Positions 7,006 to 39,196 of a DNA stretch of 64,000 bases are shown piece by piece (position 1 is the stretch's first letter; the number at the start of each line of letters is the position of its first letter). Position numbers and translations under genes: made by a program. Below the pieces are notes generated by a model. That model was not told the origin of the DNA, searched no databases, and saw only the letters and a program-made list of their open reading frames with translations. Origin of the DNA: Nautiliaceae bacterium (lineage in GTDB: Bacteria; Campylobacterota; Campylobacteria; Campylobacterales; Nautiliaceae); NCBI GenBank assembly GCA_039831155.1, contig JBDONT010000041.1:1-64000 (forward strand), in the 5' to 3' direction.

Positions 7006-7810
7006 AAAAGCACTTTTCCCGGCGGCGGGTTACGGTACTAGATTCTTACCGGCTACAAAATCGGTACCAAAAGAGATGTTACCTATAGTAAACAAACCTT
7101 TAATTCATTACGGGATAGTGGAATGTATGAATGCGGGGATATTCGAAATGGGGTTCGTTACCGGAAGAAATAAACGTTCGATTATAGATTATTTAGATTA
7201 CAATCCGGAACTTGAAGGTAAAATCAAAGGAACAAGTAAAGAACAACTATTAAAAGAAACTATGGAAATGATTAGTAAGTGCACGTTTACTTACGTCAGA
7301 CAAAAAGAGATGTTAGGATTAGGTCATGCTGTTTTAACGGGGGAACCTTTAATAGGAAACAATCCTTTTGCAGTGATATTAGCGGACGACTTATGCGAAG
7401 GCGAAGTTATGTCCCAAATGGTAAAACTTTATAATAAATATAAATGCTCTATTATAGCTATAGAAGAAGTACCTAAAGAGGAAGTTGACAAATACGGAGT
7501 TATTAAAGGGAAAAAAATAGAAGAAGGCGTATTTTTAGTAGAAGATATGGTTGAAAAACCTGAACCTAATAAAGCTCCTAGCAACTTAGCGATTATCGGT
7601 AGATATATTTTAACACCGGATATTTTCGATTTATTAAGAGTGACAAAACCTGGAAAAGGTGGAGAAATTCAATTAACCGACGCACTTTTAAGACAAGCGA
7701 AAGAGGGAATGGTAATTGCTTATAAATTTAAAGGAAAAAGATTCGATTGCGGTAGCGTAAAAGGTTTCGTAGAAGCTACGAACTATTTTTATAATAAGGA
7801 ATTTAAATAA
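6998..7810 (+). CDS. galU: UTP--glucose-1-phosphate uridylyltransferase
   Basis: PAAGYGTRFLPATKSVPKEMLP, GLGHAV, VEKP, GEIQLTDA. Confidence 0.96.
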   Translation: MVKKALFPAAGYGTRFLPATKSVPKEMLPIVNKPLIHYGIVECMNAGIFEMGFVTGRNKRSIIDYLDYNPELEGKIKGTSKEQLLKETMEMISKCTFTYVRQKEMLGLGHAVLTGEPLIGNNPFAVILADDLCEGEVMSQMVKLYNKYKCSIIAIEEVPKEEVDKYGVIKGKKIEEGVFLVEDMVEKPEPNKAPSNLAIIGRYILTPDIFDLLRVTKPGKGGEIQLTDALLRQAKEGMVIAYKFKGKRFDCGSVKGFVEATNYFYNKEFK

Positions 7811-9582: not shown

Positions 9583-9595
9583 GGACTTAAAAAAT

Positions 9596-11632: not shown

Positions 11633-11663
11633 TTTGATATAATTTCGTAAAAAAGGATAGTTT

Positions 11664-12827
11664 ATGTTTGAAAAGCTGGTTGAAAATATTAAAGGGTATA
11701 AAAAGCCACTTGCATTCGGAATAGCAAGAGTGGATTTTGGGCAAGTGAATCGTAATAAAGTTCTTCAAGCTACGTACCCTTTAATTAATTGGAATGAAAA
11801 CTTAGGAAGTGCCGCCGTATTTATTAAAAGTTTAATTGATAACGGAATTGATGTTGATTTTAGCGATTCTGAATTTGTAGCTCCCGTAACAAAAGAGTTT
11901 GTTAATACCGCTCTTGAATATTTCGGAGAAGAACTTGTAAATGAAGCAAAAGGAGATAAACATAAAAATATTCAAGTTCTAAAAGTTTTAAAAGAGATTT
12001 TTGATGATGAGGTAATGGATAATTATAGAATCTGCTTTTTATTCGAAGATACAAATCCAAAAAGCGTTGAAGCTGTTTATTTAAAATTATATGCTCTATC
12101 TCAAAGAAAAGTTCCTTTAAGAAGTATTAATTTAAACGGAGCTTTTGGAATTCTTACAAACTGTGCGTGGGTTGGAAATGTTCCGATTGAGCTTGATTAT
12201 TTAAGAGAGAATGAAATTGAACTTAAATTAAAAGACGCTTATCCGGAAGTTGAATATGTGGATAAATTCCCAAGATTTTTATCTCATATCATTCCGGACG
12301 ATAATACAAGAATTTTGGATACTGCAAAAGTTAGAATGGGAGCTCAACTTGCAGCCGGAACTACAGTAATGCCCGGAGCTAGTTATATTAACTTTAATGC
12401 CGGTACTGAAGGCCCTGTAATGGTTGAAGGTAGAATAAGCTCATCTGCCGTTGTAAAAGAGGGTGCGGATGTAGGTGGAGGAGCTTCAATTTTAGGAGTA
12501 TTATCCGGAACAAATGGAAATCCTATTACAATCGGTAAAAACACTCTTCTTGGAGCAAATTCCGTTACCGGAATTCCTCTAGGAGACGGATGTATTGTAG
12601 ATGCCGGAATAGCAGTGCTTGAAGGTACTAAAATTTGGATAAGTGAAGATGAATTTGAAAAAATCAAAGAAGTAAATCCGGAATGGAAAGCCGAATATAA
12701 AGAGTATTTCAAAGGTTTAGAGCTTGCTGGACTTAACGGTATTCATTACAGATTTGATACAACAAAAGGAAAAATGATAGCATTTAGAAGCAGACGTGAA
12801 GTAAAATTAAACGAAGAGCTTCACTAA
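11664..12827 (+). CDS. dapD: Tetrahydrodipicolinate N-succinyltransferase (Campylobacter/actinobacterial type)
   Basis: VDKFPR, VRMGAQLAAGTTVM, NFNAGT, VEGRISS, GGGASILGVLSG; TGATATAAT at 11635-11643 upstream. Confidence 0.92.
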   Translation: MFEKLVENIKGYKKPLAFGIARVDFGQVNRNKVLQATYPLINWNENLGSAAVFIKSLIDNGIDVDFSDSEFVAPVTKEFVNTALEYFGEELVNEAKGDKHKNIQVLKVLKEIFDDEVMDNYRICFLFEDTNPKSVEAVYLKLYALSQRKVPLRSINLNGAFGILTNCAWVGNVPIELDYLRENEIELKLKDAYPEVEYVDKFPRFLSHIIPDDNTRILDTAKVRMGAQLAAGTTVMPGASYINFNAGTEGPVMVEGRISSSAVVKEGADVGGGASILGVLSGTNGNPITIGKNTLLGANSVTGIPLGDGCIVDAGIAVLEGTKIWISEDEFEKIKEVNPEWKAEYKEYFKGLELAGLNGIHYRFDTTKGKMIAFRSRREVKLNEELH

Positions 12828-19887: not shown

Positions 19888-20569
19888 TACACTCCCAGAT
19901 AATTTCGCTTATATGTTTTATTTCTATATTATTGCCGTCTTTTTTTGCAATTGAGTTAAGGTGCATAAGACAGGAAAAATCAACTCCGGTTATAACATCC
20001 GGGTTTTTGCTAAGCAAATCATCAAGCTTATTTCTTCCCATTACATAACTTATAAATCCTTCTTTTAAACTAAACACTCCTCCAAACCCACAGCACTCAT
20101 CCCGGCTTGCTTCAACTACTTCACATCCTAAAACTTCTTTTATTTTATTAAAATAAGGGATATTAAGTTCACTCGCAGCACCTTCAAAGAGGTGTCTTAA
20201 AGAGTGACAAGAGTTGTGAAGGGCTATCTTTTTTGGATAGTTTTTCGCAAGGTTTTTTACTTTTAAAATATCGTGTAAAAATTCACAAAGCTCAAATGTT
20301 TTTTTGCTAACTTCAAGATTTTGGCTTCTTATAGTGCTAACACAACTGCTGCTTGGGCTTACTACATAATCAAAATCTTTAAATATTTCATTAAATTTTT
20401 GAGGCAAAGTGGTAGGATGTCCTGAATTAATAAAAGGTTGCCCGCAACATGTCTGCCCTCTTGGCACTTTTACATCAAGGTTAAAATATCTTAAAATTAA
20501 AAGGGTCTTTTTTGCAATTTCCGGATTTAGTTCGTTTATATAGCATGGAACGTGGAGGGCTATTTTCAT
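19871..20569 (-). CDS. lutA: Lactate utilization protein A (LutA/YkgE, two CCG domains)
   Basis: QTCCGQP, HNSCHSLR, ECCGFGGVFS, SCLMHL. Confidence 0.9.
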   Translation of the reverse strand: MKIALHVPCYINELNPEIAKKTLLILRYFNLDVKVPRGQTCCGQPFINSGHPTTLPQKFNEIFKDFDYVVSPSSSCVSTIRSQNLEVSKKTFELCEFLHDILKVKNLAKNYPKKIALHNSCHSLRHLFEGAASELNIPYFNKIKEVLGCEVVEASRDECCGFGGVFSLKEGFISYVMGRNKLDDLLSKNPDVITGVDFSCLMHLNSIAKKDGNNIEIKHISEIIWECIDEAL

Positions 20570-21129
20570 AAATTTTCCTTTGGCAAGGGTAATCCAAGTT
20601 CATTTAAAGGAAGATAATTAAAATAATATCTACAACCCATCATAATAATATAATCAAGTGTATCTTTATATTCCGGTTTTTTAAACCAATCGTTTAAAAT
20701 ATAAAGATATTCAATCTTTATATTTAATGGAGCAAAAAGTTTTAAATATTGTTTTTTCTTAAAATCACACGTTTGAAGTTTCTCATCCACACTTCCTGCA
20801 ACTTCTTGATATTTAACTTCTATAATAAAAGCCGTATTATTTAAAATTACATAAATAGCATCATCAGGTAGCAATTGTTTAGATAAAATTTTTCTCCAAT
20901 CTACTCCGTAATATTCAAGATAAGTATATAAAGCGTGTTTTTTGAAAGCATCTGCAACTTTTTCTTTATTATAAAATATTTCATACCATTTATTTTTATT
21001 CTTTTTGGTGTAAGGAGTTTCTTTTATCTCATATCCAGGTAAATTTTTAATAAAAGTTATCAAATCAGTCTTTCCTTCGAAATAAAGACCAGTTTTTGTA
21101 TTATACCCTCCAATTCCTCCTCTTATCAT
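20566..21129 (-). CDS. PD-(D/E)XK nuclease, probable type II restriction endonuclease
   Basis: LLPDDA...IIEVKYQ...GSVDEKLQ motif; overlaps an upstream Dam-type MTase by 4 nt. Confidence 0.7.
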   Translation of the reverse strand: MIRGGIGGYNTKTGLYFEGKTDLITFIKNLPGYEIKETPYTKKNKNKWYEIFYNKEKVADAFKKHALYTYLEYYGVDWRKILSKQLLPDDAIYVILNNTAFIIEVKYQEVAGSVDEKLQTCDFKKKQYLKLFAPLNIKIEYLYILNDWFKKPEYKDTLDYIIMMGCRYYFNYLPLNELGLPLPKENL

Positions 21130-21983
21130 AAATAATTCCTTATTAAAACTTCTGATATTTTCCCTCTGTTGTTAGCTTTTGAGTTAATAGACCTATTAGC
21201 AAACACTTTTTCAATCTTAAATTTTTTATAAAGGTTATTAATAAACTCAGTATCGGAATTACTCTCTAATACAAAACACCTTTTTTGTGAAAGAATATCG
21301 AAAGTTTCAAAAAGTTCTATTTGTTCTTTTTCCAAAAATTCTTCTTGAGTATAGGAAGTGAAATTGGAAGTTTTATTTAAAGGATAATAGGGAGGATCGA
21401 AATAAATAAAATCCTCTTTTTGTGCATATTCTAAAACTTTTTTATAATCAGAATGTTTTATTATTGTGTTTTGTAAAGCTTTTGATACTAGTAAAATATT
21501 ATTTTCATCAAGGATTTTAGGGTTTTTATATTTACCCATAGGAACATTAAAATAGCCTTTTTTATTTACTCTATAAAGACCATTAAAGCACGTTTTATTT
21601 AAATATATAAATCTAGCAGCTTTTATAATATTATCTAAATTTTTATAATTATCAGTTTTATCAAGTTCCCTGATTTGATAATAAAAATCTTTATTATGCT
21701 TGGATTTGAATTCTTTTAATTTTTCTATTAATTCATTTGGGTAGTCTCTTATTATTTTATAAGTATTTATGAGCTCTTCATTTATATCGAATAAAAAAAC
21801 TTTTTTATTTTTTAAAATTCCTAAATTGTAGAGTTCAAAGAACAAAGCTCCACCACCTACAAAGGGTTCAAAGTAATTATTAAAGTTTTTTGGAATATAC
21901 TTTAAAAGTTCCGGAATAAGTTGTCTTTTCCCTCCAACCCATTTTATAAAAGGTTTTGCAATTTGAAAAAGAGAATAAGTCAT
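21126..21983 (-). CDS. Dam-family (D12 class, alpha group) N6-adenine DNA methyltransferase
   Basis: KPFIKWVGGK, EPFVGGGA, NKTCFNGLYRVN..G.FNVPMG, DPPY. Confidence 0.93.
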   Translation of the reverse strand: MTYSLFQIAKPFIKWVGGKRQLIPELLKYIPKNFNNYFEPFVGGGALFFELYNLGILKNKKVFLFDINEELINTYKIIRDYPNELIEKLKEFKSKHNKDFYYQIRELDKTDNYKNLDNIIKAARFIYLNKTCFNGLYRVNKKGYFNVPMGKYKNPKILDENNILLVSKALQNTIIKHSDYKKVLEYAQKEDFIYFDPPYYPLNKTSNFTSYTQEEFLEKEQIELFETFDILSQKRCFVLESNSDTEFINNLYKKFKIEKVFANRSINSKANNRGKISEVLIRNYL

Positions 21984-27156: not shown

Positions 27157-28296
27157 ATGAGAGTTTTAATTGTCGGGGCCGGAATTATAGGAATGACACT
27201 GGCTTATGAATGGCTTAAAAAAAGAAGCGGGGATGAGATAATTATTATAGATAAAGAATCGCACGAAGCGTTTCACGCAAGTGGTAAAAACAGCGGTGTT
27301 TTACACGCCGGGTTTTATTATAGCAGTGATTCTTTAAAAGCTAAATTAACGGCTAGAGGTAATAAACTTATGAAAGAGTTTTGTTATTCTCATAATATAC
27401 TTGTAAACGAAACCGGAAAACTTGTAGTGGCTAAAAACGAGAATGAAATTGAAACTCTTTTCGAGCTTGAAAAAAGAAGTAAAGCCAATAACGCCGGGGC
27501 TTATATTATAAGTGAAAAAGAAGTGTATGAAATAGACTCAAACGCTAAAACTTGCCAATACGCTCTTTATTCGCCAAATACGGCCAGTGTAAATCCGAGG
27601 GAAGTTTGTAAAGTTTTAAGAACCGAACTTGAAAAAAAAGGGGTTAGGTTTATATTTAATACACCTTATGAAAAATTTAAAGAGAGTTACGACTTTTTAA
27701 TAAATGCAGCCGGACTTTATGCCGATAAGATAGCTCATCAAAACGGTGTGGGGCTTGAATATACTATGCTTCCTTTTAAAGGGCTTTATAGAAAATATTT
27801 GGGTGAGGATAAAATAAAAACTCAAATATATCCGGTACCTAATATAAAAAATCCTTTTTTGGGAGTGCATTTTACTATAATGGCTGATAATACCATAAAA
27901 ATAGGGCCTACTGCAATTCCTGCTTTTTGGAGAGAAAACTATACTATGACAAGTAGGTTTAATTTAAGCGAAATGATAGAAATTTTAACTCTTGAAGCTA
28001 AACTTTTCTTTAGTAACGCTTTTGGATTTAGGGATTTAGCCCTTTATGAGATGAGATACTATATTCCTAGTAATTTAATTAATGAAGCCAAAAAATTGGT
28101 AAAAAGATTGAGAGGTGATTTTAAACCTTTAACCCCGGGAATTAGGGCTCAACTTTTAAATAAAGAAACAAACGAACTTGTGATGGACTTTTTGATTGAA
28201 AAAAAAGAGAATCAAATACATATTTTAAATGCGGTTTCACCGGCTTTTACGGCAAGTTTTGCTTTTAGCGAGTATATTTTGAAGAATGTCATTTAA
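27157..28296 (+). CDS. lhgO: L-2-hydroxyglutarate oxidase family FAD oxidoreductase
   Basis: GAGIIG, HASGKNSGVLHAGFYY...SLKA, YPVP...PFLGVHFT, GPTA, GIRAQ, NAVSPAFT; ATG 27157 after SD GGAGG. Confidence 0.85.
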   Translation: MRVLIVGAGIIGMTLAYEWLKKRSGDEIIIIDKESHEAFHASGKNSGVLHAGFYYSSDSLKAKLTARGNKLMKEFCYSHNILVNETGKLVVAKNENEIETLFELEKRSKANNAGAYIISEKEVYEIDSNAKTCQYALYSPNTASVNPREVCKVLRTELEKKGVRFIFNTPYEKFKESYDFLINAAGLYADKIAHQNGVGLEYTMLPFKGLYRKYLGEDKIKTQIYPVPNIKNPFLGVHFTIMADNTIKIGPTAIPAFWRENYTMTSRFNLSEMIEILTLEAKLFFSNAFGFRDLALYEMRYYIPSNLINEAKKLVKRLRGDFKPLTPGIRAQLLNKETNELVMDFLIEKKENQIHILNAVSPAFTASFAFSEYILKNVI

Positions 28297-28320
28297 ATGT
28301 AATAGTAACTGATTATAATT

Positions 28321-28347
28321 TTAAGCGGAATGTTTTTTTGCCGATAT
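28321..28347 (+). promoter_or_regulatory. Putative sigma-28 (FliA) promoter of the bcs operon
   Basis: TTAA-N15-GCCGATAT versus consensus TAAA-N15-GCCGATAA; followed by SD AAGGAG and ATG 28367. Confidence 0.65.
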
Positions 28348-28366
28348 AAGAGGGAAGGAGTTATTA

Positions 28367-28555
28367 ATGAATAATACTTTTTTAAAATTTCATTTGGAAG
28401 ACAGAAAAGAAGATATGAAAAAGAAATGGAAAATATTGGGTTATTTGGACGCTTTGGAAAAAGAAGCTTTTGAAAACAAGCATATAGTTCTGCCGGAAAA
28501 AGAAGTTAAAAGATATTCTATTTCCAGACTTAGAAAAATATTCGGGGCGGTGTAA
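28367..28555 (+). CDS. Small protein heading the bcs operon (possible BcsR analogue)
   Basis: 62 aa, strong SD AAGGAG, stop abuts the bcsA GTG; KKWKIL resembles the BcsR KRWPLL motif (weak). Confidence 0.6.
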   Translation: MNNTFLKFHLEDRKEDMKKKWKILGYLDALEKEAFENKHIVLPEKEVKRYSISRLRKIFGAV

Positions 28556-30910
28556 GTGGAAAAAATATTAAAGATTTTATTTGTAGTTTCTTTTGTATTG
28601 TTGGTTTTAATAGTTTCAGCATATTCGCCGGATATAGTGCAGTTGGAGTTTTTTATAACGATATTTATTTTAAATTTGGTATTGGTACTTTATTCTAAAT
28701 TAAGAAAACAAGAAAACGAATATATTAAATTATTTTTAATAGTATCGGCTTTCACTTTTTCTTTAAGATATTTATACTGGAGAACTTTGTATACGTTGAA
28801 TTTCGATAATATTTTTAATGCGTTGGGCTCTTTATCTTTATATTTAGCGGAGGTTTATTCGTTTTTCGTATTTTTGCTTGGAGCTTTTATAGCATTAAGA
28901 ATTTATGATAGAAAAAGTATACCTATTGATGATATACCGCCGGAAAAGTTACCGACCGTTGATATTTATATTCCTACTTATGACGAGCCTTTGGAAGTTA
29001 TTAAGCCTACTACTTTAGCTGCAAGTGTAATGGATTATCCTAGAGATAAATTTAATATTTATATTTTAGATGACGGGGGTACGGAACAAAAAAGATTTCC
29101 GGATTTGGAAAAAGTAAAAAAAGAAGCTGAAGAAGAGATTATAGAAAAATATAAAAAAATTTATATGAAAAAATATAAAAATTGGGATGAGGAAAAAATC
29201 ATTCAAAAAATTAAAGAAGACAAAAAAGATGAAATAAAAGCTCATCAGGAAAAAGAAGTGGAAACGGCTAAAAAAAAGGGTGAAGCCGCTCAAAAAAGAA
29301 AAAAAATGTTGGAAGAATTTGCGGCTATTGCCGGAGAAAACGTTCATTATTTAACAAGAAAAAGAAATGAACACGCAAAAGCCGGGAATATTAACGAAGC
29401 TTTAAAACATACAAACGGAGATATTATTTTAATTCTTGATTGTGACCACGTACCTACTCAAAATTTTTTAAGAGAGACGGTCGGATTTTTTATAAAAAAT
29501 CCGAAACTTTTCTTAGTTCAAACTCCTCATAAATTTTATAATCAAGACCCTATTGAAAAGAATCTTAGAATATTTAGACAAGTTCCTAATGAAAACGAAA
29601 TGTTTTACGGATTTATTCAAAAAGGTCTTGATTTTTGGGATGCTTCTTTCTTTTGCGGGTCTGCGGCTATGCTTAGAAGAAAATATTTGGAAGAGGTTGG
29701 AGGGATTGCCGGGGATACGATTACAGAGGATGCCGAAACGGCTTTAGAACTTCATTCTAGAGGTTATCATAGTTATTATTATCCTAAAGGAATGGTATTC
29801 GGATTGCAACCGGAAACTTTTTCCGCATTTGTGGTTCAAAGGTCTAGATGGGCTCAAGGTATGATACAAATATTTTTATTAAAAAATCCTTTATTTAAAA
29901 AAGGTTTGAAATGGTATCAAAAACTGGGTTATTTAAATGCCAACGTGTTTTGGTTTTTCGGACTTGCTAGATTTACGTTTTTAATAGTACCTCTGTTTTT
30001 TATCTTTTTTAATTTAAAAATTTATGATGCGACTTTAGCGGATGTTATTTCTTATTCTTTACCGCATTTTTTCTTTTCCGTACTGTTGAGTTATTATTTG
30101 TATTCTAAATATAGATGGCCGTTTTTTTCCGAAGTTTACGAATCTTTACAGAGTCTCTTTTTATTACCGGCTATTATTTCGGTTATTTTAGCTCCGAGGT
30201 CGCCGACTTTTATCGTTACTCCAAAAGGGGAGAATATCGAAAAAGATTTCGTAACGCCTTTTTATAAACCTATTTTCTTTTTATTTAATATAACCGTTAT
30301 AGGTATTATGATAGGTATTTATAAATATGTTCAAAATCCTGACCAAAGAGGGACGTTGGCGGTATTAGGTTTTTGGATGTGTTTTAATATTTTGTATTTG
30401 GGAGTAGGAATGATAGTCGCTCACGAAAAGCCGGAAAAAAGAACTTTTCATAGAATTCCCGCTAATGATGAGGCGATAGTTTATATTAATCATAAGGCGT
30501 ACGAAGGGACGGTTAGGGATATATCTTTAACAGGTATTTGGATAGAGGTTCATAAGGATATTTCCCATCTTTTAAAGGATTATGTATGGGATAAAAAACT
30601 TAAATTTTTAATTAAAGACGAATACGGGATAATGTTTGCGGTGGAAGGGCAAGTGGTTAATGCCAATGCCCATAATATAAGAATGAAATTCGTTTTTGCC
30701 AATATAGACCAAGAGAAAAAAATTACTCAACTTGTATATGCTTCAAGTTCCAGATGGAAGTTGTTTATGCAAGAAAAAGCGGTTAGTCCTTTTTATTCTA
30801 TAATGTTTTTATTCAAATTGATATTTAGAGATTTCGGAAGAGCTTATATAGAGGTAGTGAAGACTTTTTATAAAGATTTATTAGGTATAATTTCGTTTAA
30901 AAGAACTTAA
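28556..30910 (+). CDS. bcsA: Cellulose synthase catalytic subunit (GT2 + PilZ)
   Basis: RYLYWR, DDG, HAKAGN, DCDH, QTPH, FFCGS, TED, QRSRW, FxVTPK gating loop, PilZ RxxxR (RTFHR) and DISLTG. Confidence 0.95.
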   Translation: MEKILKILFVVSFVLLVLIVSAYSPDIVQLEFFITIFILNLVLVLYSKLRKQENEYIKLFLIVSAFTFSLRYLYWRTLYTLNFDNIFNALGSLSLYLAEVYSFFVFLLGAFIALRIYDRKSIPIDDIPPEKLPTVDIYIPTYDEPLEVIKPTTLAASVMDYPRDKFNIYILDDGGTEQKRFPDLEKVKKEAEEEIIEKYKKIYMKKYKNWDEEKIIQKIKEDKKDEIKAHQEKEVETAKKKGEAAQKRKKMLEEFAAIAGENVHYLTRKRNEHAKAGNINEALKHTNGDIILILDCDHVPTQNFLRETVGFFIKNPKLFLVQTPHKFYNQDPIEKNLRIFRQVPNENEMFYGFIQKGLDFWDASFFCGSAAMLRRKYLEEVGGIAGDTITEDAETALELHSRGYHSYYYPKGMVFGLQPETFSAFVVQRSRWAQGMIQIFLLKNPLFKKGLKWYQKLGYLNANVFWFFGLARFTFLIVPLFFIFFNLKIYDATLADVISYSLPHFFFSVLLSYYLYSKYRWPFFSEVYESLQSLFLLPAIISVILAPRSPTFIVTPKGENIEKDFVTPFYKPIFFLFNITVIGIMIGIYKYVQNPDQRGTLAVLGFWMCFNILYLGVGMIVAHEKPEKRTFHRIPANDEAIVYINHKAYEGTVRDISLTGIWIEVHKDISHLLKDYVWDKKLKFLIKDEYGIMFAVEGQVVNANAHNIRMKFVFANIDQEKKITQLVYASSSRWKLFMQEKAVSPFYSIMFLFKLIFRDFGRAYIEVVKTFYKDLLGIISFKRT

Positions 30911-30924
30911 AGGAGGAAAGGAAA

Positions 30925-31419
30925 ATGGCTCTTTTTAAAAAAGCTAAAATAGAAAAAAAAGTTCAAGAGGAGGTTATCGATACCGGATTGGTTCCTGAAG
31001 AGTTGGTTAATGTAAAACAAAGAGACGTTTTAAATAGTTTTTTAAGTAGTGTATTGGAAGTTGGTGATGAAAGTGATTATGAATATTTATGTGATATTTC
31101 CGCTAAGGCTTTTTATAAAAAAAACGCTCTTTTTTTAGAATCTATAATAGAAACTAGCGGAGATGATGTAAAAGTTGCATTTGAATATTTAAATTATTTT
31201 TTGCAAACTTTCGGATTAGGAAGTTTTCAAGCTCTTATTAAGGAAGATGATAAAGAGATAATAGTTTATCATTATAATTCTCCTTTTGATGAGATTTATG
31301 AAAAGGATTATTTTTTAAAAGAATTTTATAGATTGTTTTTTGATGTTTTATTAGATACGAAGACAGACGTAGTTGAAAGGAAAGAGGATGATAAGAAAAT
31401 TTTTGTTATTAATATTTAG
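30925..31419 (+). CDS. BcsD-like (cellulose synthase subunit D / V4R-TRAPP fold) protein
   Basis: 164 aa; LNYFLQTFGLGSFQALIKEDDKEIIVYHYNSP...FLKEFY aligns by eye with BcsD LN..L...GWG.V.L.....L.I.H..LP...LEGLY; located inside the bcs operon. Confidence 0.55.
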   Translation: MALFKKAKIEKKVQEEVIDTGLVPEELVNVKQRDVLNSFLSSVLEVGDESDYEYLCDISAKAFYKKNALFLESIIETSGDDVKVAFEYLNYFLQTFGLGSFQALIKEDDKEIIVYHYNSPFDEIYEKDYFLKEFYRLFFDVLLDTKTDVVERKEDDKKIFVINI

Positions 31420-33508
31420 TTTTATTGCATTTTCGTATGCGAAAAGTAACGTATTAAAGTTATCGGACCTTTATCCGGATCAAAAAATTTTAAGAGGTTC
31501 GCAAGGGGGGACGGTTCTTACAATCCCTATCCCCGATAGGGTAAAAATAAAAAAAGCTATGATTCATATAGAATATATCCCGTCTAAAGCTTTAGTGAAG
31601 CAAAGAAGCGTTTTAACCGCAATGTTTAACGGAGTGGCTTTGTATCAACAAAGATTAGACCCTAATATAGACATTTATTCTTATGATATTTCAATTCCTT
31701 TGTATTTGATTAAAGATATTAATAAATTTAAAATTTTTGTAACTCAACATTATTGTATGGATTGTTGTGAAAATGGTTCTTCTCCTGAACTTTGGACCGA
31801 AATTTTGTGGGATAAGAGTTATTTGAAAATAAATTACGATTATAAAAAAATGAATAATGATTTATTAACATATAGAGATTATGTGTTGGATTATAAAAAT
31901 TTTAGTCCGATTTCTATAGGTATTATGACCGAAACGGATAGTGACGATTATTTAACTATGGGAGCTAGAATCAGCGGTTATTTAGGAAGTGTTATAAAAT
32001 ATAGAAAAATTTATATAAAAAGAGTTGAAAACATTAATAAAGATATGGATATCTTTTTGATAGGAAGTACGGATTATGTTAAACAAGTTTTAAAAATAAA
32101 AAAAGATATTCCTAATATTTTCGTAATGAAAAATCCTAAATACCCGAATAGAGCGATTATAGTGCTGAATGCGGAAGATAAAACGGAATTGAGAAATATT
32201 ATAGATTCTTTTATTTCCATACCGAAAAATCTTTTAATGGGTAAAAGTATAGATGTTTCTAAATATAAAAAACCTCTTATAGACGCTTATGAATCTCCTT
32301 TATATATTCCGTTGGGTAAAAAGGTTTATTTTAGCGATTTAGGATATGACGATTTAAAATTTTATCATCCTAGTTATCAATATACGGTAAATTTTAATAT
32401 GCCTCCGGATGTTTTTATGATTTCTCAAAAGAAATTTACTTTCCATCTTTTTTACAATTATAACGAAGCGGTTAAAGACTCCTCCGCAATTAATATATTC
32501 ATAAACGGAAAATTCGTAACCGCTTTAAAAGCGGATAAGACATACGGTACTTTATTAGAAGATGCGGAATTGAGAATACCGGTTTATATGTTAAAACCCG
32601 GGAAAAATTCGATTACTATTCAATATGCTTTACAAGCCCCGGGAGGAGGACGTTGTCAAAGACCTAACGGTTTATTGATGCAAGGTACCGTTTTTTCAAG
32701 TAAATCTTATATAGAGCTTCCTAGATTTCCTCATTGGAGGGAAATGGCTTATATGGAATTGTTTACTACAACCGCTTATCCTTTTTCGATTTATCCGGAT
32801 TTAAAAGGGACTCAAATATATATTGCGGAAAAAAGTAAAAATTTGGTTTCGGCTATGTATACTTTAATGGCTTATATAGGAGAGAAAACATTTGTTCCTT
32901 TATATAACGTTTCGGTTGTAAGTTCTCAAGAGGATATTAAGAAATCAAGTAACGTAATTGCGATAGGAGCTAATTTACCTAAAGAATTTTATAAAAATAC
33001 TCCTATAATGTTTGATGACGATAAAATTACCTTAAGATTTAACGCATTTAAAAAGATAGAAGATACGTTAAAAAACAGGCTTTTAGGTATGAAAGAAAAC
33101 GAGAATTTACAAACTATTATAAAATTGAAAGACGATTTAATTAATGAAACGGTTTTTACGGAAGGTAGGTCTCCTTATGGTGGAGATAAAACATTTTTGA
33201 TTATCACTTCAAAAAGTGATAAAGATATTTTAAAAAGTATTAAAAATTTATACGAACCGAAATTTGCAGGATATATTAAAGGCGATTTGGTTATAATAGA
33301 CAATAAAAAAGATAACGTATATTATGCTGATGTCGGAAAAAAATATTATGTAGGGCATTTACCTTGGTTCGAGTATTTTATGTTTAAAATAGGTTTTTCT
33401 TATCCGATGTTGGTATTAATGTTTTTAATTGTGGCTATGACTATAGTCGTAGTATTAAAATTATTACTTGATTTAAGATTAAAATTTAAAGAGAAAGAGT
33501 GGCAATGA
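31388..33508 (+). CDS. bcsB: Cellulose synthase periplasmic co-catalytic subunit B
   Basis: Signal peptide, two repeated CBD/flavodoxin-like halves, C...PELWT and second Cys, YPFS, YYVGHLPW before the C-terminal TM anchor; ATG 31388. Confidence 0.88.
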   Translation: MIRKFLLLIFSFIAFSYAKSNVLKLSDLYPDQKILRGSQGGTVLTIPIPDRVKIKKAMIHIEYIPSKALVKQRSVLTAMFNGVALYQQRLDPNIDIYSYDISIPLYLIKDINKFKIFVTQHYCMDCCENGSSPELWTEILWDKSYLKINYDYKKMNNDLLTYRDYVLDYKNFSPISIGIMTETDSDDYLTMGARISGYLGSVIKYRKIYIKRVENINKDMDIFLIGSTDYVKQVLKIKKDIPNIFVMKNPKYPNRAIIVLNAEDKTELRNIIDSFISIPKNLLMGKSIDVSKYKKPLIDAYESPLYIPLGKKVYFSDLGYDDLKFYHPSYQYTVNFNMPPDVFMISQKKFTFHLFYNYNEAVKDSSAINIFINGKFVTALKADKTYGTLLEDAELRIPVYMLKPGKNSITIQYALQAPGGGRCQRPNGLLMQGTVFSSKSYIELPRFPHWREMAYMELFTTTAYPFSIYPDLKGTQIYIAEKSKNLVSAMYTLMAYIGEKTFVPLYNVSVVSSQEDIKKSSNVIAIGANLPKEFYKNTPIMFDDDKITLRFNAFKKIEDTLKNRLLGMKENENLQTIIKLKDDLINETVFTEGRSPYGGDKTFLIITSKSDKDILKSIKNLYEPKFAGYIKGDLVIIDNKKDNVYYADVGKKYYVGHLPWFEYFMFKIGFSYPMLVLMFLIVAMTIVVVLKLLLDLRLKFKEKEWQ

Positions 33509-34440
33509 AAAAATTATTATTAATTTTTTTTCTTTTATTCTCTTTTTTGTTTGCAACGGATGTTACTAAATTTATAAAATATAATTCTTATGTAATAGAC
33601 CCTTACAATCATAATAGGGTAACTTCAGAAGCTCAAGGATACGGACTTTTATATGCTTATTTGACTAATAATAAAAAATTATTCGATTCTATGTGGCGTT
33701 GGACTAAAACTCATATGCAAAGAAGAGATTCTCTTTTTGCTTGGAATTATAATAACGGTAGAGTTATAGATTATAATAATGCGACCGACGGAGATTTGTT
33801 TATAGCTTATTCTCTTTTAAGAGCATCTTATAAATGGCATAATGTCGGATACTATGAAGAAAGTAGAAAAATAATAAAAGAATTGAAAAGATATATTTTG
33901 GAGATTAACAATAATATGATTTTATTACCCGGTAAACATGGATTTGTTAAAGAAAACGGTATAGAAGTTTTTCCGGCTTATTATATTAAATTTATTTTCG
34001 ATAGGTTTTACGATGAAACTAATGATATTACTTGGAAATATATTGCCGATTATACGGAAGTATTATATAATCAAAGATTAAGCGATAGAATGTTGTTTTC
34101 TTTTTTCAATAAGAATTTTTCCAATGTCTCCGTAGTTACTATGGACGTTTATAGAGTGATTTTATATCAATATTTAAGTAACGGGCATATAGAGTTTTTA
34201 AAGAACTCTTTTAAAGAAATTAATAAATTTTTTATTAATAACGGATATATTCCTTTAGAATATAGATTTTCTTCTCTTACTCAAACCAGAACGGAATCGC
34301 CTTATTGTGTATACGGGTTGTTTTATTTATTATATGACAATAAAGCTTATTTAAAAAAATATTTGGATTTGAAAAAAGTTGATAAAAAAAATTATTTTTG
34401 TAGTTTTTTAGATTTTTTCTTACAAAAGGGGATTGAATGA
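33505..34440 (+). CDS. bcsZ: Glycoside hydrolase family 8 endoglucanase
   Basis: Signal peptide, TSEAQGYGL, LFAW, NNATDGDLFIAYSL, LLPG..GF, D..R base motif. Confidence 0.9.
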   Translation: MKKLLLIFFLLFSFLFATDVTKFIKYNSYVIDPYNHNRVTSEAQGYGLLYAYLTNNKKLFDSMWRWTKTHMQRRDSLFAWNYNNGRVIDYNNATDGDLFIAYSLLRASYKWHNVGYYEESRKIIKELKRYILEINNNMILLPGKHGFVKENGIEVFPAYYIKFIFDRFYDETNDITWKYIADYTEVLYNQRLSDRMLFSFFNKNFSNVSVVTMDVYRVILYQYLSNGHIEFLKNSFKEINKFFINNGYIPLEYRFSSLTQTRTESPYCVYGLFYLLYDNKAYLKKYLDLKKVDKKNYFCSFLDFFLQKGIE

Positions 34441-37400
34441 AAAAGGTGGTGTTGTTAATTTGTGTAATAGTTGAGCTTTTTGCTTATTCTTTAGTAGTAA
34501 ACGATAAATCCGATGCAAATAAATTAAAAAAAGCAGGAATGAATTGTGTGTTGGATAAAAATAATAATTATTATAGATGTGCAACGTCGAATGATATAGC
34601 TCAATTAAAAAGGATTCAACAATATATAGCTAAGACTTATAAAATAAATGCTTTTATAGCTCAAGATAGTGATACTGCAAATATGGTGGATGTGAAGAAG
34701 ATAACTTCTCCTTTAAAGAAAAGAAGTAATAAAAAATTAAAAACGACAGATATTAAGAAAACCGGTTGGTGTTTGCAAATAAGCAGTTCCACTTCAAAAA
34801 ACAGTATTTTAAGAATTTTTAAAAAATATAGAGATTACCCTTTAGCAAGAGTTGAAAAAATAGGTGGATATTATGTTCTAAGAATAGGAGAAGGAAGTTA
34901 TTCAGATATCATTTCTTTAAAAGACGAGATAAATAAAGGAATTGTAAGAAAATGTGATTATATTCCTCAAAGAATCGTAATTTCAAATGTTGAAAGTAAT
35001 TCTCTTGACAATAAACCCGCTTTGAAAATTACTCAAGCTAAAAGTATAGAAAAGAAAATAATCAATAAAGTAAGCGACCAAAACGGTTCTAAAGGAGACG
35101 ACCAGGGGGTATTGATATCAAGAATGTATAAAGCTTTGAATGCGGGAGATTTAATTACCGCAAAGAATATAGCCGGCGGTCTTATAGATACTAATCCTCA
35201 AGATGCTTATAATGTTTTAGGAATAGTTTCTATGAAAATGGGTAAATGGGATAAAGCTTGTGAATATTTGAAAAAAACATCGAATAAGAAACTTGCCGAT
35301 ACGGCTTGTTATACTTATAATTTAAAAGCCGGATATTCTTATTTGCAAAAAAATCCTTCCGTAGCCCTTGAATTTTTTCAAAACGCTCAAACCTATAAAA
35401 ATAATAAAGACGTGTTGTTAGGAATGGGATATGCTTATTTAAATATGAATCAATTATCCAAAGCATTGGAAATTTTTCAATCTCTTTATGAAAAATATCC
35501 TAATGATAAAGCGGTGATAGGGGGGTATATAGCTGCTTTATATAATGCTAAAGATTATAATAAATTGGAAGAGTTAAAGCGTAAATTGCCTGCCGATTAT
35601 GCTTCTTTGTTTAAAAAATACGATACTTATATAGCTTTAAATAAAGTTAACGAACTTTTGAAAAAGAAAAAATATATGCAAGCGGAGAGTATTTTATTGG
35701 ATTTGTATAAAAAAAATCCGGATAATGTAAACGTACTTTTAACATTAGGAAATTTATATTTTCAAACGAATCAATTGGATAAAGCGGAGAATTTTTATAA
35801 TAACGTTTTATTAATTAATTCGGATAATATTTATGCTCTTCAAGGTTTAAGAGGGATAGCCGCTAAAAGAGGAGATTTTAAAAAAGCTTTAGAATATTCG
35901 GATAAACTAAGGGCTTTAGGTATTGATGTGGACGATACGAAAATAAAAAGTCTTTATTATTTAAGATTAGCTAGAGAATCTATGAAAGCTAAAGATTGTC
36001 AAAATGCTTATAAATATGCTACGTTAGCTAAAAAAGAGGATGAAACTTTAGCTGAAGCTTATATGATTTTAGGAGATTATTATACGTTTTGTCAGAAAGA
36101 TAAAAGAAGAGCTTTTTTAAATTATGAAAAAGGTTATCAGTATGCTAAAAATAATTTTGATATGAAGTTGAAATTTTTATATTCTCTTTTACATTATGAT
36201 ATGTTTACTCAAATTAAAATAGTGTTAGAAACTATAGACCCTTCTAAATTAACTCCTGTACAAAAAGAAGATTTAAGAAAATTTTATTCGGCTCTTTATG
36301 TTAAGTTCGCTTCTTATAAATTCAAAAATAAAGAGTATAAAACAGCTATTAAAGTTTGTGAAGAGGGGTTGAAGTATGATAGTGCCAATCCCGCTTTATA
36401 TGAGATAGCCGGTTGGAGCTGTTTTAGATTAAAAAATTATAAATGTGCTAAAGATTATTTTCAAAAATCGGTTGCTTTGAGTAATAGTGAAAAAACTAAA
36501 TACGCTTTGGCTTTGGCTTATTTAAATTTAGGAGAAAAGGAAAAAGCGGTTAAAATTTTGGATTCGATAGCTTCTACGAAAGATCCTGATTTAAGAGTAA
36601 AAATTGCAGATGCTTATGTCTCTTTAGGGGAAGTTTCAAAAGCCGAAAGACTTTTAAAAAGTATAAGAATAAAAACTAGAAGCGTTCAGCCTCAATATAC
36701 TCCTCAAGATGTTCCGGTGCCTATAATAAAAAAACAAGATAACGGAGAGTTTTTCCCTGATGTCTTAGATAGTAAAGCTAATGATTTATTTTATAAAAAG
36801 ACGGTTTTGATGAGTATTAACGATTTAAAACCGGTTTATGTAAAAAATAAATATACTTCTAAGTTAAAAGAGGAGTATCAAGAGTTACAAGAGAAAATTT
36901 TGTTATCGAAAAGTAATTATTTGAATAATGTTGAAGTAGGATTAAATTTAAGAACGAAAAGCGGGACTACCGGTTTGGGACAACTTAGTGATTTGCTGTT
37001 TTACTTTAAAGGGGATTATTTTTTAGGAACAAAGAAAAAAATATACGCTAAATTAGGTTTTTTGAATTTATCTAGCGGTAATGTGGAAAATTATGCTCAA
37101 GTAGGAGCGAGCGGAGGATATTTTATTGACGATTGGTTGACGGATTATACGGGGTTTATGCCTAAAATAGGATTCTCATATAGTGGGGAAAAGATTTTTA
37201 ATATAGAATTAGGAACCACTCCTATAGGAGATAACCCTATTTCTTATGCTTATGTAGGTAGACTTGCGGTGGGAGCTAGAAAAAAAAGTGAAAAATATTT
37301 ATTGACTTTTTCAAGAAGTGCAGTAAAAGACTCTATTTTATCTTATGTAGGAAACAATGACCCTTACAGTGATAGAAGTTGGGGAAGAGTATTGGATAAC

Positions 37401-37976
37401 GAGGTAAAATTCGAATATGAGAAAACATTGGATAAAAATGATTCTATGTTTTATGTTGCTTTTTCTATAGGTTATTTGGATGGAGAAAATGTAAATGAAA
37501 ACGAAAAATATGAAATAAATTTATTTCCTTTAAAGTATTGGGGAAATAATATTTTGGATTATGATTACTTAGGACTCTTTAGTATGGTTCAAATATATAA
37601 ACATAATGAAAATAGCTTTTTATATTATAGAGGGGGATATTTTTCTCCTAAAAGTTTTTTTCTATTTGCACCTAGATATGAAGGGTATGCGTTTGACGAT
37701 GAAAAACAACTGGGAGTTAAAGCGTTTATAATGGGTGGTCCTCTTTTTTATGATGAGGATAACGCTCAAATGTCGTTAGCTTTGGAAGCCGGTATTTATG
37801 CTAAATATATTTTATCCGATTCTATCGTTTTAAAAGGAGGAGCGGATTTGAGACGTTCGGGAGATTATACCGATGTGTATGTTAATTTTGCTTTACAATA
37901 TTATTTCGGAAAAAAATTGTATATTACGAAATCAGAATTAAATCATAATATGAAGGAGATGTTAAGAACATGGTAA
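34437..37976 (+). CDS. bcsC: BcsC-like outer-membrane export protein: N-terminal SPOR-like domain(s), TPR array, C-terminal beta-barrel
   Basis: Signal peptide, many TPRs; barrel motifs R.KSGT.GL..L, LGTTP.G, R.AVKDS.LSY.G..DPY...WG.V, GGYFSP. Confidence 0.85.
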   Translation: MKKVVLLICVIVELFAYSLVVNDKSDANKLKKAGMNCVLDKNNNYYRCATSNDIAQLKRIQQYIAKTYKINAFIAQDSDTANMVDVKKITSPLKKRSNKKLKTTDIKKTGWCLQISSSTSKNSILRIFKKYRDYPLARVEKIGGYYVLRIGEGSYSDIISLKDEINKGIVRKCDYIPQRIVISNVESNSLDNKPALKITQAKSIEKKIINKVSDQNGSKGDDQGVLISRMYKALNAGDLITAKNIAGGLIDTNPQDAYNVLGIVSMKMGKWDKACEYLKKTSNKKLADTACYTYNLKAGYSYLQKNPSVALEFFQNAQTYKNNKDVLLGMGYAYLNMNQLSKALEIFQSLYEKYPNDKAVIGGYIAALYNAKDYNKLEELKRKLPADYASLFKKYDTYIALNKVNELLKKKKYMQAESILLDLYKKNPDNVNVLLTLGNLYFQTNQLDKAENFYNNVLLINSDNIYALQGLRGIAAKRGDFKKALEYSDKLRALGIDVDDTKIKSLYYLRLARESMKAKDCQNAYKYATLAKKEDETLAEAYMILGDYYTFCQKDKRRAFLNYEKGYQYAKNNFDMKLKFLYSLLHYDMFTQIKIVLETIDPSKLTPVQKEDLRKFYSALYVKFASYKFKNKEYKTAIKVCEEGLKYDSANPALYEIAGWSCFRLKNYKCAKDYFQKSVALSNSEKTKYALALAYLNLGEKEKAVKILDSIASTKDPDLRVKIADAYVSLGEVSKAERLLKSIRIKTRSVQPQYTPQDVPVPIIKKQDNGEFFPDVLDSKANDLFYKKTVLMSINDLKPVYVKNKYTSKLKEEYQELQEKILLSKSNYLNNVEVGLNLRTKSGTTGLGQLSDLLFYFKGDYFLGTKKKIYAKLGFLNLSSGNVENYAQVGASGGYFIDDWLTDYTGFMPKIGFSYSGEKIFNIELGTTPIGDNPISYAYVGRLAVGARKKSEKYLLTFSRSAVKDSILSYVGNNDPYSDRSWGRVLDNEVKFEYEKTLDKNDSMFYVAFSIGYLDGENVNENEKYEINLFPLKYWGNNILDYDYLGLFSMVQIYKHNENSFLYYRGGYFSPKSFFLFAPRYEGYAFDDEKQLGVKAFIMGGPLFYDEDNAQMSLALEAGIYAKYILSDSIVLKGGADLRRSGDYTDVYVNFALQYYFGKKLYITKSELNHNMKEMLRTW

Positions 37977-38701
37977 TACCTATAGTTTCGTTAAAAGGTG
38001 GAGTTGGAAAGTCAACGGTTTCTATAAATTTATCCGATATGTTGGCTTTGGAAGAAAAAACTATCTTAATAGATACGGATCAACAAAACAGTATAGCTTC
38101 GTTGTTTTGTAAAAGATATAAAGCCGGATTTTCCGAGTTGATTTTTGAAGAAGCTAAGCTAGACGATGTGATTATGGAAATAGAAGAAAATAAAAATTTA
38201 CATATTATTCCTACTGGAAGGTACGTAATAGAACATCCTATTATTTATGAAGAAGAATTTCATTCCGAAAAATTGAAAAAAATTATTGTAGAACTTGAAA
38301 AAAGATATAAATATTTGATATTCGATACTTCACCTAGGATATCTAAGCCTGTTATTTCTTTATTAGGTGTTGCTGATTTTTTTATTATCGTGATTACACC
38401 TGATCCGGCAAGTGTCGCTTCTTTAAAAATCTTTTTGGAAACTTTAGAGGAAAAGAATATAACGGCTGACTATTCCATAATAGTAAACGGTATGCAACCG
38501 GATCAAATTTCGGAAGACTTTTTTGCTTTTATTCAAGCTATTTCTCATAATAATATTTTAGGTACCCTTCCTAGAGACGGGACGGTTTTGGAGGCTGCGG
38601 GAGAATGTACGACCGTTAGATTGTATGATGATACTAGTGCTTTTGCTAAAAATATAGAAAAAGTGGTTGTAAATTTGAAAAAAAGGTTACAAAATTTGTA
38701 A
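37970..38701 (+). CDS. bcsQ: ParA/MinD-like ATPase, probable BcsQ
   Basis: Deviant Walker A VSLKGGVGKST, IDTD.QN, PDPAS (BcsQ-like); last gene of the bcs cluster. Confidence 0.75.
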   Translation: MVIPIVSLKGGVGKSTVSINLSDMLALEEKTILIDTDQQNSIASLFCKRYKAGFSELIFEEAKLDDVIMEIEENKNLHIIPTGRYVIEHPIIYEEEFHSEKLKKIIVELEKRYKYLIFDTSPRISKPVISLLGVADFFIIVITPDPASVASLKIFLETLEEKNITADYSIIVNGMQPDQISEDFFAFIQAISHNNILGTLPRDGTVLEAAGECTTVRLYDDTSAFAKNIEKVVVNLKKRLQNL

Positions 38702-39008
38702 AAAAGCGGCGATTTTAATAAAGGACGGTTTTTTAAGCGGATATCCGTCCGATTTATTAATAGGAGAAAAAGTTTATAAAGATTATGATTTAAAATTTAT
38801 ATGTGAAATAAAAAAAGTTAATATTGTCATAGGTACTTATATGCCAAGTGGGCTTATTAAGAAATTGAGGGATAAGGGTGTTATGTTTTTGAAAATAAAC
38901 TCTTTAAACGAACTTGATGGATTTGATTATGATATAATCGTTCCGAAAGAGTTTAATATAAAAAGAGGGTGGGGATGTGCCAAGGGATTTAAATTTAAAG
39001 GAGAATAA
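38694..39008 (+). CDS. Uncalled ~104-codon ORF with no canonical start (ATT start, pseudogene or frameshift extension)
   Basis: Stop-free frame 38679-39008 (ICKKAAILIKDGFLSGYPSDLLIG...VNIVIGTYMPSGLIKKLRDKGV...RGWGCAKGFKFKGE*); its TAA overlaps the next ATG. Confidence 0.45.
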   Translation: MCKKAAILIKDGFLSGYPSDLLIGEKVYKDYDLKFICEIKKVNIVIGTYMPSGLIKKLRDKGVMFLKINSLNELDGFDYDIIVPKEFNIKRGWGCAKGFKFKGE

Positions 39009-39196
39009 TGGAAAAGTTAAATCAAGCGGTAGAAAAAATTAAAAATAGTGATTTAAATGATTTTGAAAAAGAGAATGTTATTAATCATTTAGTTGAATGG
39101 TATAACGAAAAGAAAAGTTTAGCTTATATTGAAGAAAAGCTGGAAGAAGTTTGGGAAAAAATTCTTCCTATCTTAAATGAAGCAGGATTAATCTAA
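39008..39196 (+). CDS. Small hypothetical helical protein
   Basis: 62 aa, SD AAGGAG, amphipathic helices. Confidence 0.6.
   Translation: MEKLNQAVEKIKNSDLNDFEKENVINHLVEWYNEKKSLAYIEEKLEEVWEKILPILNEAGLI

Follow-up and report, generated by a model that had tools for sequence, protein, structure and literature searches.

The contig JBDONT010000041.1 of a Nautiliaceae bacterium (Campylobacterota; GenBank assembly GCA_039831155.1) carries a cluster of bcs genes, which raises the question of whether these genes form a working system for making and exporting cellulose, and whether that system is of a new kind. The stretch analyzed, referred to here as the window, comprises 64 kb of this contig, from a host assembly of 1.53 Mb that is 96.7% complete. 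An original prediction, made from the sequence alone, had described the cluster as a complete but atypically organized cellulose secretion locus of a distinct, possibly thermophilic operon type that would make unmodified cellulose. We find that the operon is real and intact, and probably active. It is likely to encode a working synthase-dependent system for cellulose secretion (Bcs), from a lineage common to the Aquificota and a few Nautiliaceae.

A complete bcs operon in the window

The list of open reading frames (ORFs) places seven tightly coupled ORFs on the forward strand at 28367-38701, exactly where the original prediction had put the locus. Together with family scans, it gives the order 62-residue leader, bcsA, a gene for a 164-residue BcsD-like (D-like) protein, bcsB, bcsZ, bcsC and a bcsQ-like ATPase gene (Table 1), with successive junctions of 0, +14, -47, -10, -4 and -7 bases. 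Profile searches of the 96.7%-complete genome gave no match to BcsE (PF10995) or BcsG (PF11658), both models detecting the E. coli positive control; BcsF was not searched for. The canonical BcsD model PF03500 likewise had no match anywhere in the genome at an E-value of 1. Since all seven ORFs are accounted for, the operon contains no acetylation gene and no gene for a proline-rich BcsH or BcsP protein. Because gene content, motifs and coupling all hold, and no BcsE, BcsG or canonical BcsD model finds a match in the genome, the description of an intact locus with catalytic and PilZ motifs, free of bcsE, bcsG, acetylation and proline-rich genes, is confirmed.

The family searches proposed with that prediction were carried out, and BcsA, BcsB, BcsZ and BcsC all pass Pfam or TIGR03030 cut-offs. 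BcsA scores 840.3 bits against TIGR03030 (cut-off 699.1), and its C-terminal PilZ domain 33.9 bits against PF07238 (cut-off 22.5). The GT2 motifs DDG172, HAKAGN273, DCD295, FFCGS365, TED390 and QRSRW428 are present, as are the c-di-GMP-binding motifs of PilZ, RTFHR629 and DISLTG655. The protein is 99% identical to a sequence from an uncultured Nautiliales bacterium and 36-54% identical to the named relatives examined; against the enterobacterial NCBIfam model NF008558 it scores 546.5 bits, under the cut-off of 992. BcsB, the periplasmic co-polymerase, matches PF03170 over residues 25-607 (284.4 bits, above the Pfam cut-off); it begins with a signal-like segment and is anchored in the membrane by its C-terminus. 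Its best NCBIfam BcsB model gives 589.9 bits, under a cut-off of 1098. BcsZ is matched above the Pfam cut-off by the GH8 endoglucanase family PF01270 (105.7 bits) and below the cut-off of 299 by NF008305 (110 bits). BcsC combines many TPR families with a BCSC_C domain (PF05420, residues 912-1078, 114.2 bits, above the Pfam cut-off), as a periplasmic TPR scaffold ending in an outer-membrane barrel, and reaches 53.4 bits against NF008520 (cut-off 858).

The last gene encodes a SIMIBI (MinD/ParA-type) ATPase whose Walker A motif, KGGVGK, is invariant in 11 orthologues. It scores 42.5 bits against PF06564 (CBP_BcsQ, cut-off 21.3), with the generic AAA_31 family PF13614 better at 87 bits, and 78.8 bits against TIGR03371, under the NCBIfam cut-off of 157.85; it is 22% identical to E. 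coli K-12 BcsQ over the portion of that sequence that could be read (E 2e-6). Hydrophobic signal-like N-termini were found in BcsB, BcsZ and BcsC, and inspection of the small and soluble operon proteins showed no signal-like or anchor segment in the leader, D-like and BcsQ-like proteins.

The glycosyltransferase domain of BcsA also carries an insert rich in lysine and glutamate (47.5% of residues) at residues ~171-250, corresponding to window positions 29066-29305 between the DDG and HAKAGN motifs. The insert is far longer than in the Hydrogenothermaceae orthologue, and it breaks the TIGR03030 match into two stretches.

A ribosome-binding-like stretch, GGGAAGGAG, lies 5' of the leader ATG. The promoter-like site upstream has 10 of 12 consensus matches; because the scan returned 61 such sites in total against 57.9 expected from shuffled sequence, it is a weak indication only.

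Table 1 Features of the bcs operon and its surroundings in the window.
Feature	Coordinates	Strand	Basis or remark
Segment missing at the corresponding site of two complete genomes of the genus	28297..38840		~10.5 kb
Promoter-like site TTTAAA-16-TATAAT	28292..28319	+	5' of the leader ORF, within the 70 bases that separate it from the L-2-hydroxyglutarate oxidase gene
Leader gene (P0002), 62 aa	28367..28555	+	conserved 5' of bcsA; no family match
bcsA, 784 aa	28556..30910	+	TIGR03030, PF13632, PF00535, PF03552, PF07238
BcsD/V4R-fold protein gene (P0001), 164 aa; fold predicted	30925..31419	+	fold and profile comparison
bcsB, 711 aa	31373..33508	+	PF03170
bcsZ, 313 aa	33499..34440	+	GH8, PF01270
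bcsC, 1179 aa	34437..37976	+	TPR families and PF05420 BCSC_C
bcsQ-like ATPase gene, 243 aa, last in operon	37970..38701	+	PF13614, PF06564
Terminator-like hairpin	38738..38751	+	5-pair stem then ATTTATT, 37 bases past the bcsQ stop; weak pattern match

The D-like family as a probable link between BcsD and the V4R fold

The 164-residue protein had been labelled BcsD-like in the original prediction. Searched directly, it has no Pfam or NCBIfam match even at an E-value of 10, PF03500 and the V4R family PF02830 included. It lacks a signal peptide, begins with a conserved MALFKK N-terminus and has five close homologues among 5.8 billion clusters. A narrow alignment found four metagenome loci, and a profile search of 1.84 billion proteins recovered 31 representative clusters of the family. 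Comparison with a diverged strain gives a ratio of non-synonymous to synonymous substitution rates (dN/dS) of 0.14 at a dS of 1.0, indicating purifying selection.

An AlphaFold2 (AF2) model of the protein (predicted local distance difference test score, pLDDT, 74.3; predicted template modelling score, pTM, 0.73) places it in the BcsD/V4R fold. The top Foldseek match of the model is BcsD of Orrella dioscoreae (E 3.3e-4). Alignment with VIA-align gave Z 12.0-12.4 against five BcsD structures, with a root-mean-square deviation (rmsd) of 2.2-3.6 Å over 117-127 aligned residues, tied with Z 11.0-11.8 against the V4R sensor domains of MopR, PoxR and DmpR; TRAPP Bet3 proteins gave Z 9-10.7.

The wider family was then compared with both groups at the sequence level. 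Scanned singly, 20 of the 31 members match V4R PF02830 (best E 2e-16) and 17 match Cellsynth_D PF03500 at E-values up to 1 (best 1.3e-4); the Aquificota orthologue in locus L002 reaches 20.8 bits against PF03500, for a cut-off of 23. Profile-profile alignment with hhalign used six canonical BcsD proteins from Pseudomonadota genomes and six ordinary V4R proteins from Aquificota genomes as references. The 31-sequence family aligned with canonical BcsD at a probability of 82.5% (E 9.8e-6, 124 columns) and with the V4R proteins at 97.5% (E 8.6e-12, 105 columns), and BcsD aligned directly with V4R at 0.68% (E 0.084, 38 columns). On the basis of these small alignments, the D-like family appears to stand between BcsD and V4R in sequence and so to connect BcsD with the V4R fold. 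The BcsD-like label was not confirmed by direct family searches and is supported indirectly, through fold and family-profile comparison.

In most family members, the C-terminal half contains the pattern C...E..C...C, which we take to resemble the zinc site of MopR-type V4R sensors. The window's protein and its nearest relatives lack every one of these cysteines, and in this, as in having no PF02830 match and being encoded only inside bcs operons, the window's protein differs from V4R proteins. These data bear on an alternative in which the 164-residue protein is a V4R-type sensor of ligands or metals, through which a small molecule would gate the synthase, rather than a BcsD-like scaffold. Such a role would fit a family whose profile lies nearer to V4R than to BcsD, the retention of the cysteine pattern by most members, the matches of 20 members to PF02830, and the Z scores of the ligand-binding sensor domains given above. 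The cysteine-free copies are nonetheless under purifying selection, the gene is invariably part of a bcs operon and adjacent to bcsB, and it is the BcsD structures that give the top Z and the lowest rmsd (2.2 Å over 117 residues). We consider a sensor role possible, although somewhat unlikely.

A broader proposal can be advanced tentatively. The D-like family may represent the ancestral BcsD, derived from a V4R sensor with a Cys/Glu, probably zinc-binding, site; the Aquificota copies would still be sensors linking cellulose secretion to a cue such as a small molecule, a metal or a redox signal, the Nautiliaceae copies and proteobacterial BcsD would independently have become pure scaffolds, and the leader would be the ancestral BcsR/BcsP plug. 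In the library searched, no paper mentions BcsD together with V4R, and none of the papers listed by a wider search combines BcsD or CesD with Bet3, 4-vinyl reductase, H-NOX or MopR.

A conserved leader gene accompanies bcsA

The 62-residue ORF is a real gene, a conserved leader of bcsA. Its stop codon abuts the bcsA GTG start, and its dN/dS against the diverged strain is 0.15. The protein is cytosolic and helical, with a conserved LKxKWKI..FL motif and a C-terminal ISxLK helix; residues A5, F8, K20, W21, K22 and I52 are invariant in an eight-sequence alignment. It has no Pfam, NCBIfam or PDB match, ten orthologues have no Pfam match at an E-value of 10 (PF10945 included), and no PDB match to BcsR chains appears at that threshold. 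The AF2 model predicts helices at residues 3-37 and 52-58 (pLDDT 70.6), with a fold too uncertain to be used for structure comparison (pTM 0.33).

In other Nautiliaceae, a leader-like ORF lies directly 5' of bcsA in strain L021 (73% identity) and in locus L060 of genome G584 (35%). Nine Aquificota loci include the region 5' of bcsA. A clear leader is present directly 5' of bcsA in five (L045, L047, L048, L049 and L053, the last from Aquifex aeolicus), longer divergent ORFs take its place in two (L044 and L054), the leader is split between two frames in one (L002), and one has no ORF of at least 25 residues (L050). In A. aeolicus, bcsA lies apart from the D-like-B-Z-C-Q genes on the other strand and the leader is still found with bcsA, which suggests BcsA rather than BcsQ as the partner of the leader.

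The original prediction had seen an R/Q-like pair in this leader and the terminal ATPase gene. The window operon and the E. coli type II BcsR-BcsQ system (described in the available text of PMC11470070 and PMC8892547) do share an operon-leading protein of about 60 residues, a SIMIBI ATPase and a bcsA that follows, and the LKxKW(K/P)(I/L)(I/L)-type motif of the leader resembles KRWPLL of E. coli BcsR. The window leader differs in having no PF10945 match and an hhalign probability against BcsR of 0.27%, and in adjoining bcsA, not bcsQ; bcsQ lies 9.4 kb downstream of the leader, and there are no bcsEFG genes in the operon. With no significant BcsR similarity and its position beside bcsA in A. aeolicus, the leader gives no support for such a pair. 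According to the accessible text of Anso et al. 2024 (PMC11470070), residues L25, F29 and L31 of E. coli BcsR fill a hydrophobic pocket of BcsA that lies behind its GT and PilZ modules, and the N-terminus of BcsP is homologous to BcsR. By analogy, the LKxKWKI motif of the leader could act as a BcsR-like plug of BcsA.

The operon is shared with Aquificota

Seven Aquificota genomes have the order A-D-like-B-Z-C-Q in full (L002, of the Hydrogenothermaceae, and L044, L045, L047, L049, L050 and L054), with identities to the window proteins of 52-55% for BcsA, 37-47% for BcsB and 37-43% for BcsQ. A full-length D-like match (E 1e-30 or better) is present in 12 of 178 Aquificota genomes; the gene adjoins bcsB in all 12 and is flanked by bcsA on its other side in nine, the other three being accounted for by a contig end or an Aquifex-type rearrangement. 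The operons of these organisms (Hydrogenothermaceae metagenome-assembled genomes, Sulfurihydrogenibium, Hydrogenothermus and A. aeolicus) differ from that of the window in their D-like proteins, which keep the Cys/Glu cluster lost in the window's copy, in the K/E insert of BcsA, which is longer in the window, and in host phylum.

Two Aquificota loci showed further peculiarities. In A. aeolicus G404 (L053), D-like-B-Z-C-Q lie on one strand, with the leader and bcsA convergent just downstream on the other, and the D-like frame is open for 292-330 residues with the family-type start (MKFF...) internal. In genome G513 (L032/L054), the D-like gene is broken by one TGA and five TAA codons and the BcsB match falls into two pieces, with bcsA, bcsZ, bcsC and bcsQ looking whole; this copy may be decaying or may reflect an assembly error.

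Among 401 sampled Campylobacterota genomes, a strong BcsA match was found in two, that of the window (G000) and G301, whose locus reads leader-A-B-Z-C-Q and has no D-like gene. Within the Nautiliaceae, the operon is present in 3 of 30 genomes, 15 of which are under 90% complete: that of the window, a 99%-identical genome, and G584 from another genus. These counts agree with the earlier remark that cellulose is not a recognized trait of the model members of this phylum. Weak BcsA-like matches (E near 1e-23) in about 35 further Campylobacterota genomes were rejected as cellulose synthases, judged from the three that were scanned, all of which are GH17-GT2 fusions without PilZ. These three (L009, L010 and L011, from G167, G366 and G267) are ~800-845 residues long, and the GH17-GT2 fusions of Campylobacterota may be a beta-glucan synthase of another kind.

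In the synteny check suggested with the original prediction, the gene order proved to be shared with Aquificota genomes, and presence in the Nautiliaceae is patchy. The locus is not a new operon type peculiar to the genome of the window, as the same order is complete in seven Aquificota genomes and NCBI already names relatives from 'Nautilia sp.', Hydrogenothermus, Sulfurihydrogenibium and A. aeolicus as cellulose synthase. Nor is the combination of BcsD with BcsQ atypical: the available text of PMC8892547 defines type I by bcsD plus bcsABZC, lists BcsQ among optional extras, and names alpha-, beta- and gamma-Proteobacteria as hosts. Under that published definition the locus formally counts as type I-like, although its D protein is non-canonical, its gene order distinctive and its hosts lie outside the Proteobacteria.

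Type I systems (Gluconacetobacter, Dickeya and Burkholderia in the same text) and the window operon both encode BcsA, BcsB, BcsZ, BcsC, a BcsD-fold protein and a BcsQ-type ATPase, and neither has BcsE or BcsG. The D-type protein is cytosolic in both, to judge from the missing signal peptide of the window copy and, for canonical BcsD, from the available text of PMC9757748. In contrast to type I, the window's D-like protein falls below the PF03500 cut-off and is nearer to V4R in sequence, its gene lies between bcsA and bcsB, bcsQ comes last, proline-rich BcsH/BcsP is missing, and the hosts belong to the Aquificota and Campylobacterota. In six canonical Pseudomonadota loci, bcsD follows bcsC in five and lies between two bcsQ-like genes in one, and in none does it stand between bcsA and bcsB. 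We conclude that the locus belongs to an Aquificota/Nautiliaceae variant of bcsD-type systems, widespread in public genomes and undescribed as far as the literature was searched. Those searches found no paper on cellulose synthase in Nautilia, and the papers listed for bcsA in Campylobacterota were on other subjects, as judged by title. Production of cellulose by A. aeolicus and Hydrogenothermus is reported in the accessible part of Roemling 2022 (PMC10086821).

Chromosomal site and history of the operon

Two complete genomes of the same genus (G043 and G031) lack the bcs genes and read recO, L-2-hydroxyglutarate oxidase gene, ~310 bases, orf55, orf62b, aldehyde dehydrogenase gene and ilvE at the corresponding site; nucleotide homology to this empty site resumes at about window position 38841. 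Neither direct repeats nor an integrase or tRNA gene were observed around the 10.5-kb segment, which at 0.28-0.30 has a somewhat lower G+C content than the flanking DNA (0.32-0.35). Just beyond it, at 38841-39196, are two small ORFs of 55 and 62 residues with no family match and 56-83% identity in same-genus genomes without the operon; because they are conserved at operon-less sites, they are native genes bordering an inserted segment.

Compared with strain L021, the flanks of the operon are 95-98% identical at the nucleotide level and the bcs genes (28390-32273) 73-93%, a mosaic pattern that favours recombination or allele replacement in the bcs region. The corresponding dS values are 0.92 for the leader, 1.0 for the D-like gene and 0.18 for the neighbouring oxidase gene.

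To place the synthase, the BcsA phylogeny proposed with the original prediction was computed. A tree of 88 rows puts the window sequence in a clade of 20 (support 99), 18 rows of which are unlabelled metagenome proteins; the sister group of this clade (99) consists of 34 Hydrogenothermaceae rows. When the tree was confined to labelled sequences (23 rows), the Nautiliaceae (100/100) join the Hydrogenothermaceae (100/99), with A. aeolicus outside the pair (89/96). Other Campylobacterota BcsA sequences form a second clade that also includes Aquifex pyrophilus and a Desulfobulbaceae sequence. A tree constrained to unite the six Campylobacterota rows was 225 log-likelihood units worse (p-value of the approximately unbiased (AU) test, 5.8e-63), rejecting a single Campylobacterota clade. 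The trees and the AU test give good support to an exchange between Aquificota and Nautiliaceae, as had been suggested for vent Aquificota; as to direction, we tentatively favour transfer from the Aquificota to the Nautiliaceae.

In genome G584, from a second genus, the operon is found at the corresponding chromosomal position, where it immediately follows recO and the L-2-hydroxyglutarate oxidase gene. A shared site in two genera suggests either that the operon was acquired long ago and later lost from some members, or that recombination through the flanks has spread it within the family. It would also fit an operon ancestral to the Nautiliaceae and lost many times, with transfer from the Nautiliaceae to the Aquificota, or from a third lineage into both; the sister position of the Nautiliaceae BcsA, which is not nested within the Hydrogenothermaceae, and the 18 unlabelled rows in the window's clade point the same way. 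This history is unlikely in view of the outgroup-rooted tree, which leaves A. aeolicus outside the pair, the occurrence of the gene order in both Hydrogenothermaceae and Aquifex, the small share of Nautiliaceae genomes that carry the operon (although half of those surveyed are under 90% complete), and the separate clade of the other Campylobacterota BcsA sequences. 

Predicted function and substrate supply

The genome contains galU at window 7001-7777 (387.9 bits, above cut-off), 22 GGDEF domain matches above cut-off and one further PilZ protein, and thus can feed and switch the synthase. Two vent metatranscriptome libraries, both from one sample of one study, contain 0.81 and 0.70 of the operon's sampled words without mapping, and seven likely DNA runs from vent or unlabelled sources contain 0.10-0.30. 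This gives a hint that the operon is transcribed, being a matter of word content only, with DNA carry-over possible.

The fraction of the amino acids IVYWREL is 0.405 in 14 housekeeping ORFs of the window and 0.413 in the Bcs proteins. The relation reportedly described by Zeldovich and colleagues in 2007 would put growth near 45 °C, a rough pointer to moderate thermophily.

A 685-residue protein encoded at 9575-11632 of the window contains a Tll0287-like sensor domain, a GGDEF region that matches only weakly (45 bits) and an EAL domain with a strong match (205.8 bits), and is likely a c-di-GMP phosphodiesterase by its domain content. Its gene lies right after galU and a glmS-like gene (6998-9582), about 17 kb upstream of the bcs operon, and the bin 10001-12000, which holds its 3' part, has a G+C content of 0.264.

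We propose the following model. BcsA would polymerize UDP-glucose when c-di-GMP binds its PilZ domain, and tail-anchored BcsB would complete the inner-membrane machine. BcsC would carry the glucan through the periplasm and outer membrane, with the GH8 enzyme BcsZ trimming it. The leader, translationally coupled to bcsA, would act on BcsA in the manner of BcsR or the N-terminus of BcsP; the 164-residue protein may be a BcsD-like cytosolic scaffold or regulator of the synthase; and the BcsQ-like SIMIBI ATPase encoded at the 3' end of the operon would complete a set of three cytosolic accessory proteins. The operon would have been exchanged between a Hydrogenothermaceae-related lineage of Aquificota and the Nautiliaceae, where only some members now carry it, at a site between the L-2-hydroxyglutarate oxidase gene and orf55 and with D-like copies that have lost the Cys/Glu cluster.

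Several points weigh against this model. The NCBIfam equivalog cut-offs are missed by BcsB, BcsZ, BcsC and BcsQ, BcsA being the only one to pass, and the polymer product, its linkage and its c-di-GMP dependence are predicted from family membership only. The leader shows no significant similarity to E. coli BcsR, as the hhalign alignment covers six columns pairing KKWKIL with KRWPLL. For the D-like protein, the Z scores of BcsD are tied with those of the V4R sensors, so that the fold cannot separate a scaffold from a ligand sensor; and since the window copy matches neither PF03500 nor PF02830, and its five cysteine-free close relatives alone align with BcsD at an hhalign probability of 5.7%, the BcsD link comes from the wider family and the predicted structure. 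As to history, the Nautiliaceae BcsA is sister to that of the Hydrogenothermaceae rather than nested inside, the clade submitted to the AU test was named after the first tree had been viewed, and the root is a single long-branched Pseudomonadota outgroup.

A different product, such as a curdlan-like or mixed-linkage beta-glucan, is very unlikely. The 36-54% identity of BcsA to named relatives and the failure against NF008558 leave room for it, but BcsA passes TIGR03030, an equivalog-domain model for UDP-forming cellulose synthase, is encoded with BcsB, a GH8 BcsZ and BcsC, and has source-named relatives that, among the matches listed, are all called cellulose synthase. That the locus is a decaying remnant out of use, as its loss from close relatives and the six stop codons in the D-like gene of G513 in the Aquificota might suggest, is scarcely credible given seven intact ORFs with overlapping junctions, dN/dS of 0.14-0.15 in the two fastest-evolving genes, and operon words, albeit unmapped, in two metatranscriptome libraries.

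Other features of the window

Two further loci were noted away from the operon. At 59937-63282, a D12-class adenine methyltransferase gene, an unassigned 201-residue ORF and an AlwI-type restriction endonuclease gene coincide with the lowest G+C content (0.23-0.26), which suggests that a restriction-modification island was acquired here. On the reverse strand at 20566-21983, another D12-class adenine methyltransferase gene lies next to an unassigned 187-residue ORF, beside LUD/CCG lactate-utilization-type genes.

Discussion

The core finding is largely ordinary: automatic annotation already names these genes, and cellulose in Aquificales is in print (in the accessible part of PMC10086821). The parts worth following are the family that bridges V4R and BcsD and the conserved leader of bcsA.

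If the likely reading of the locus as a functional cellulose secretion operon holds, it would extend bcsD-type (type I-like) cellulose secretion beyond the Proteobacteria to two vent-dwelling phyla, and provide a concrete case of a 10-kb biofilm-matrix operon exchanged between phyla. Structural studies often profit from thermophile proteins, and the synthase with its cytosolic partners may offer targets of this kind. The origin and role of BcsD are still debated, and the D-like family would connect it in sequence with the V4R fold, making both the derivation of BcsD and its binding properties testable.

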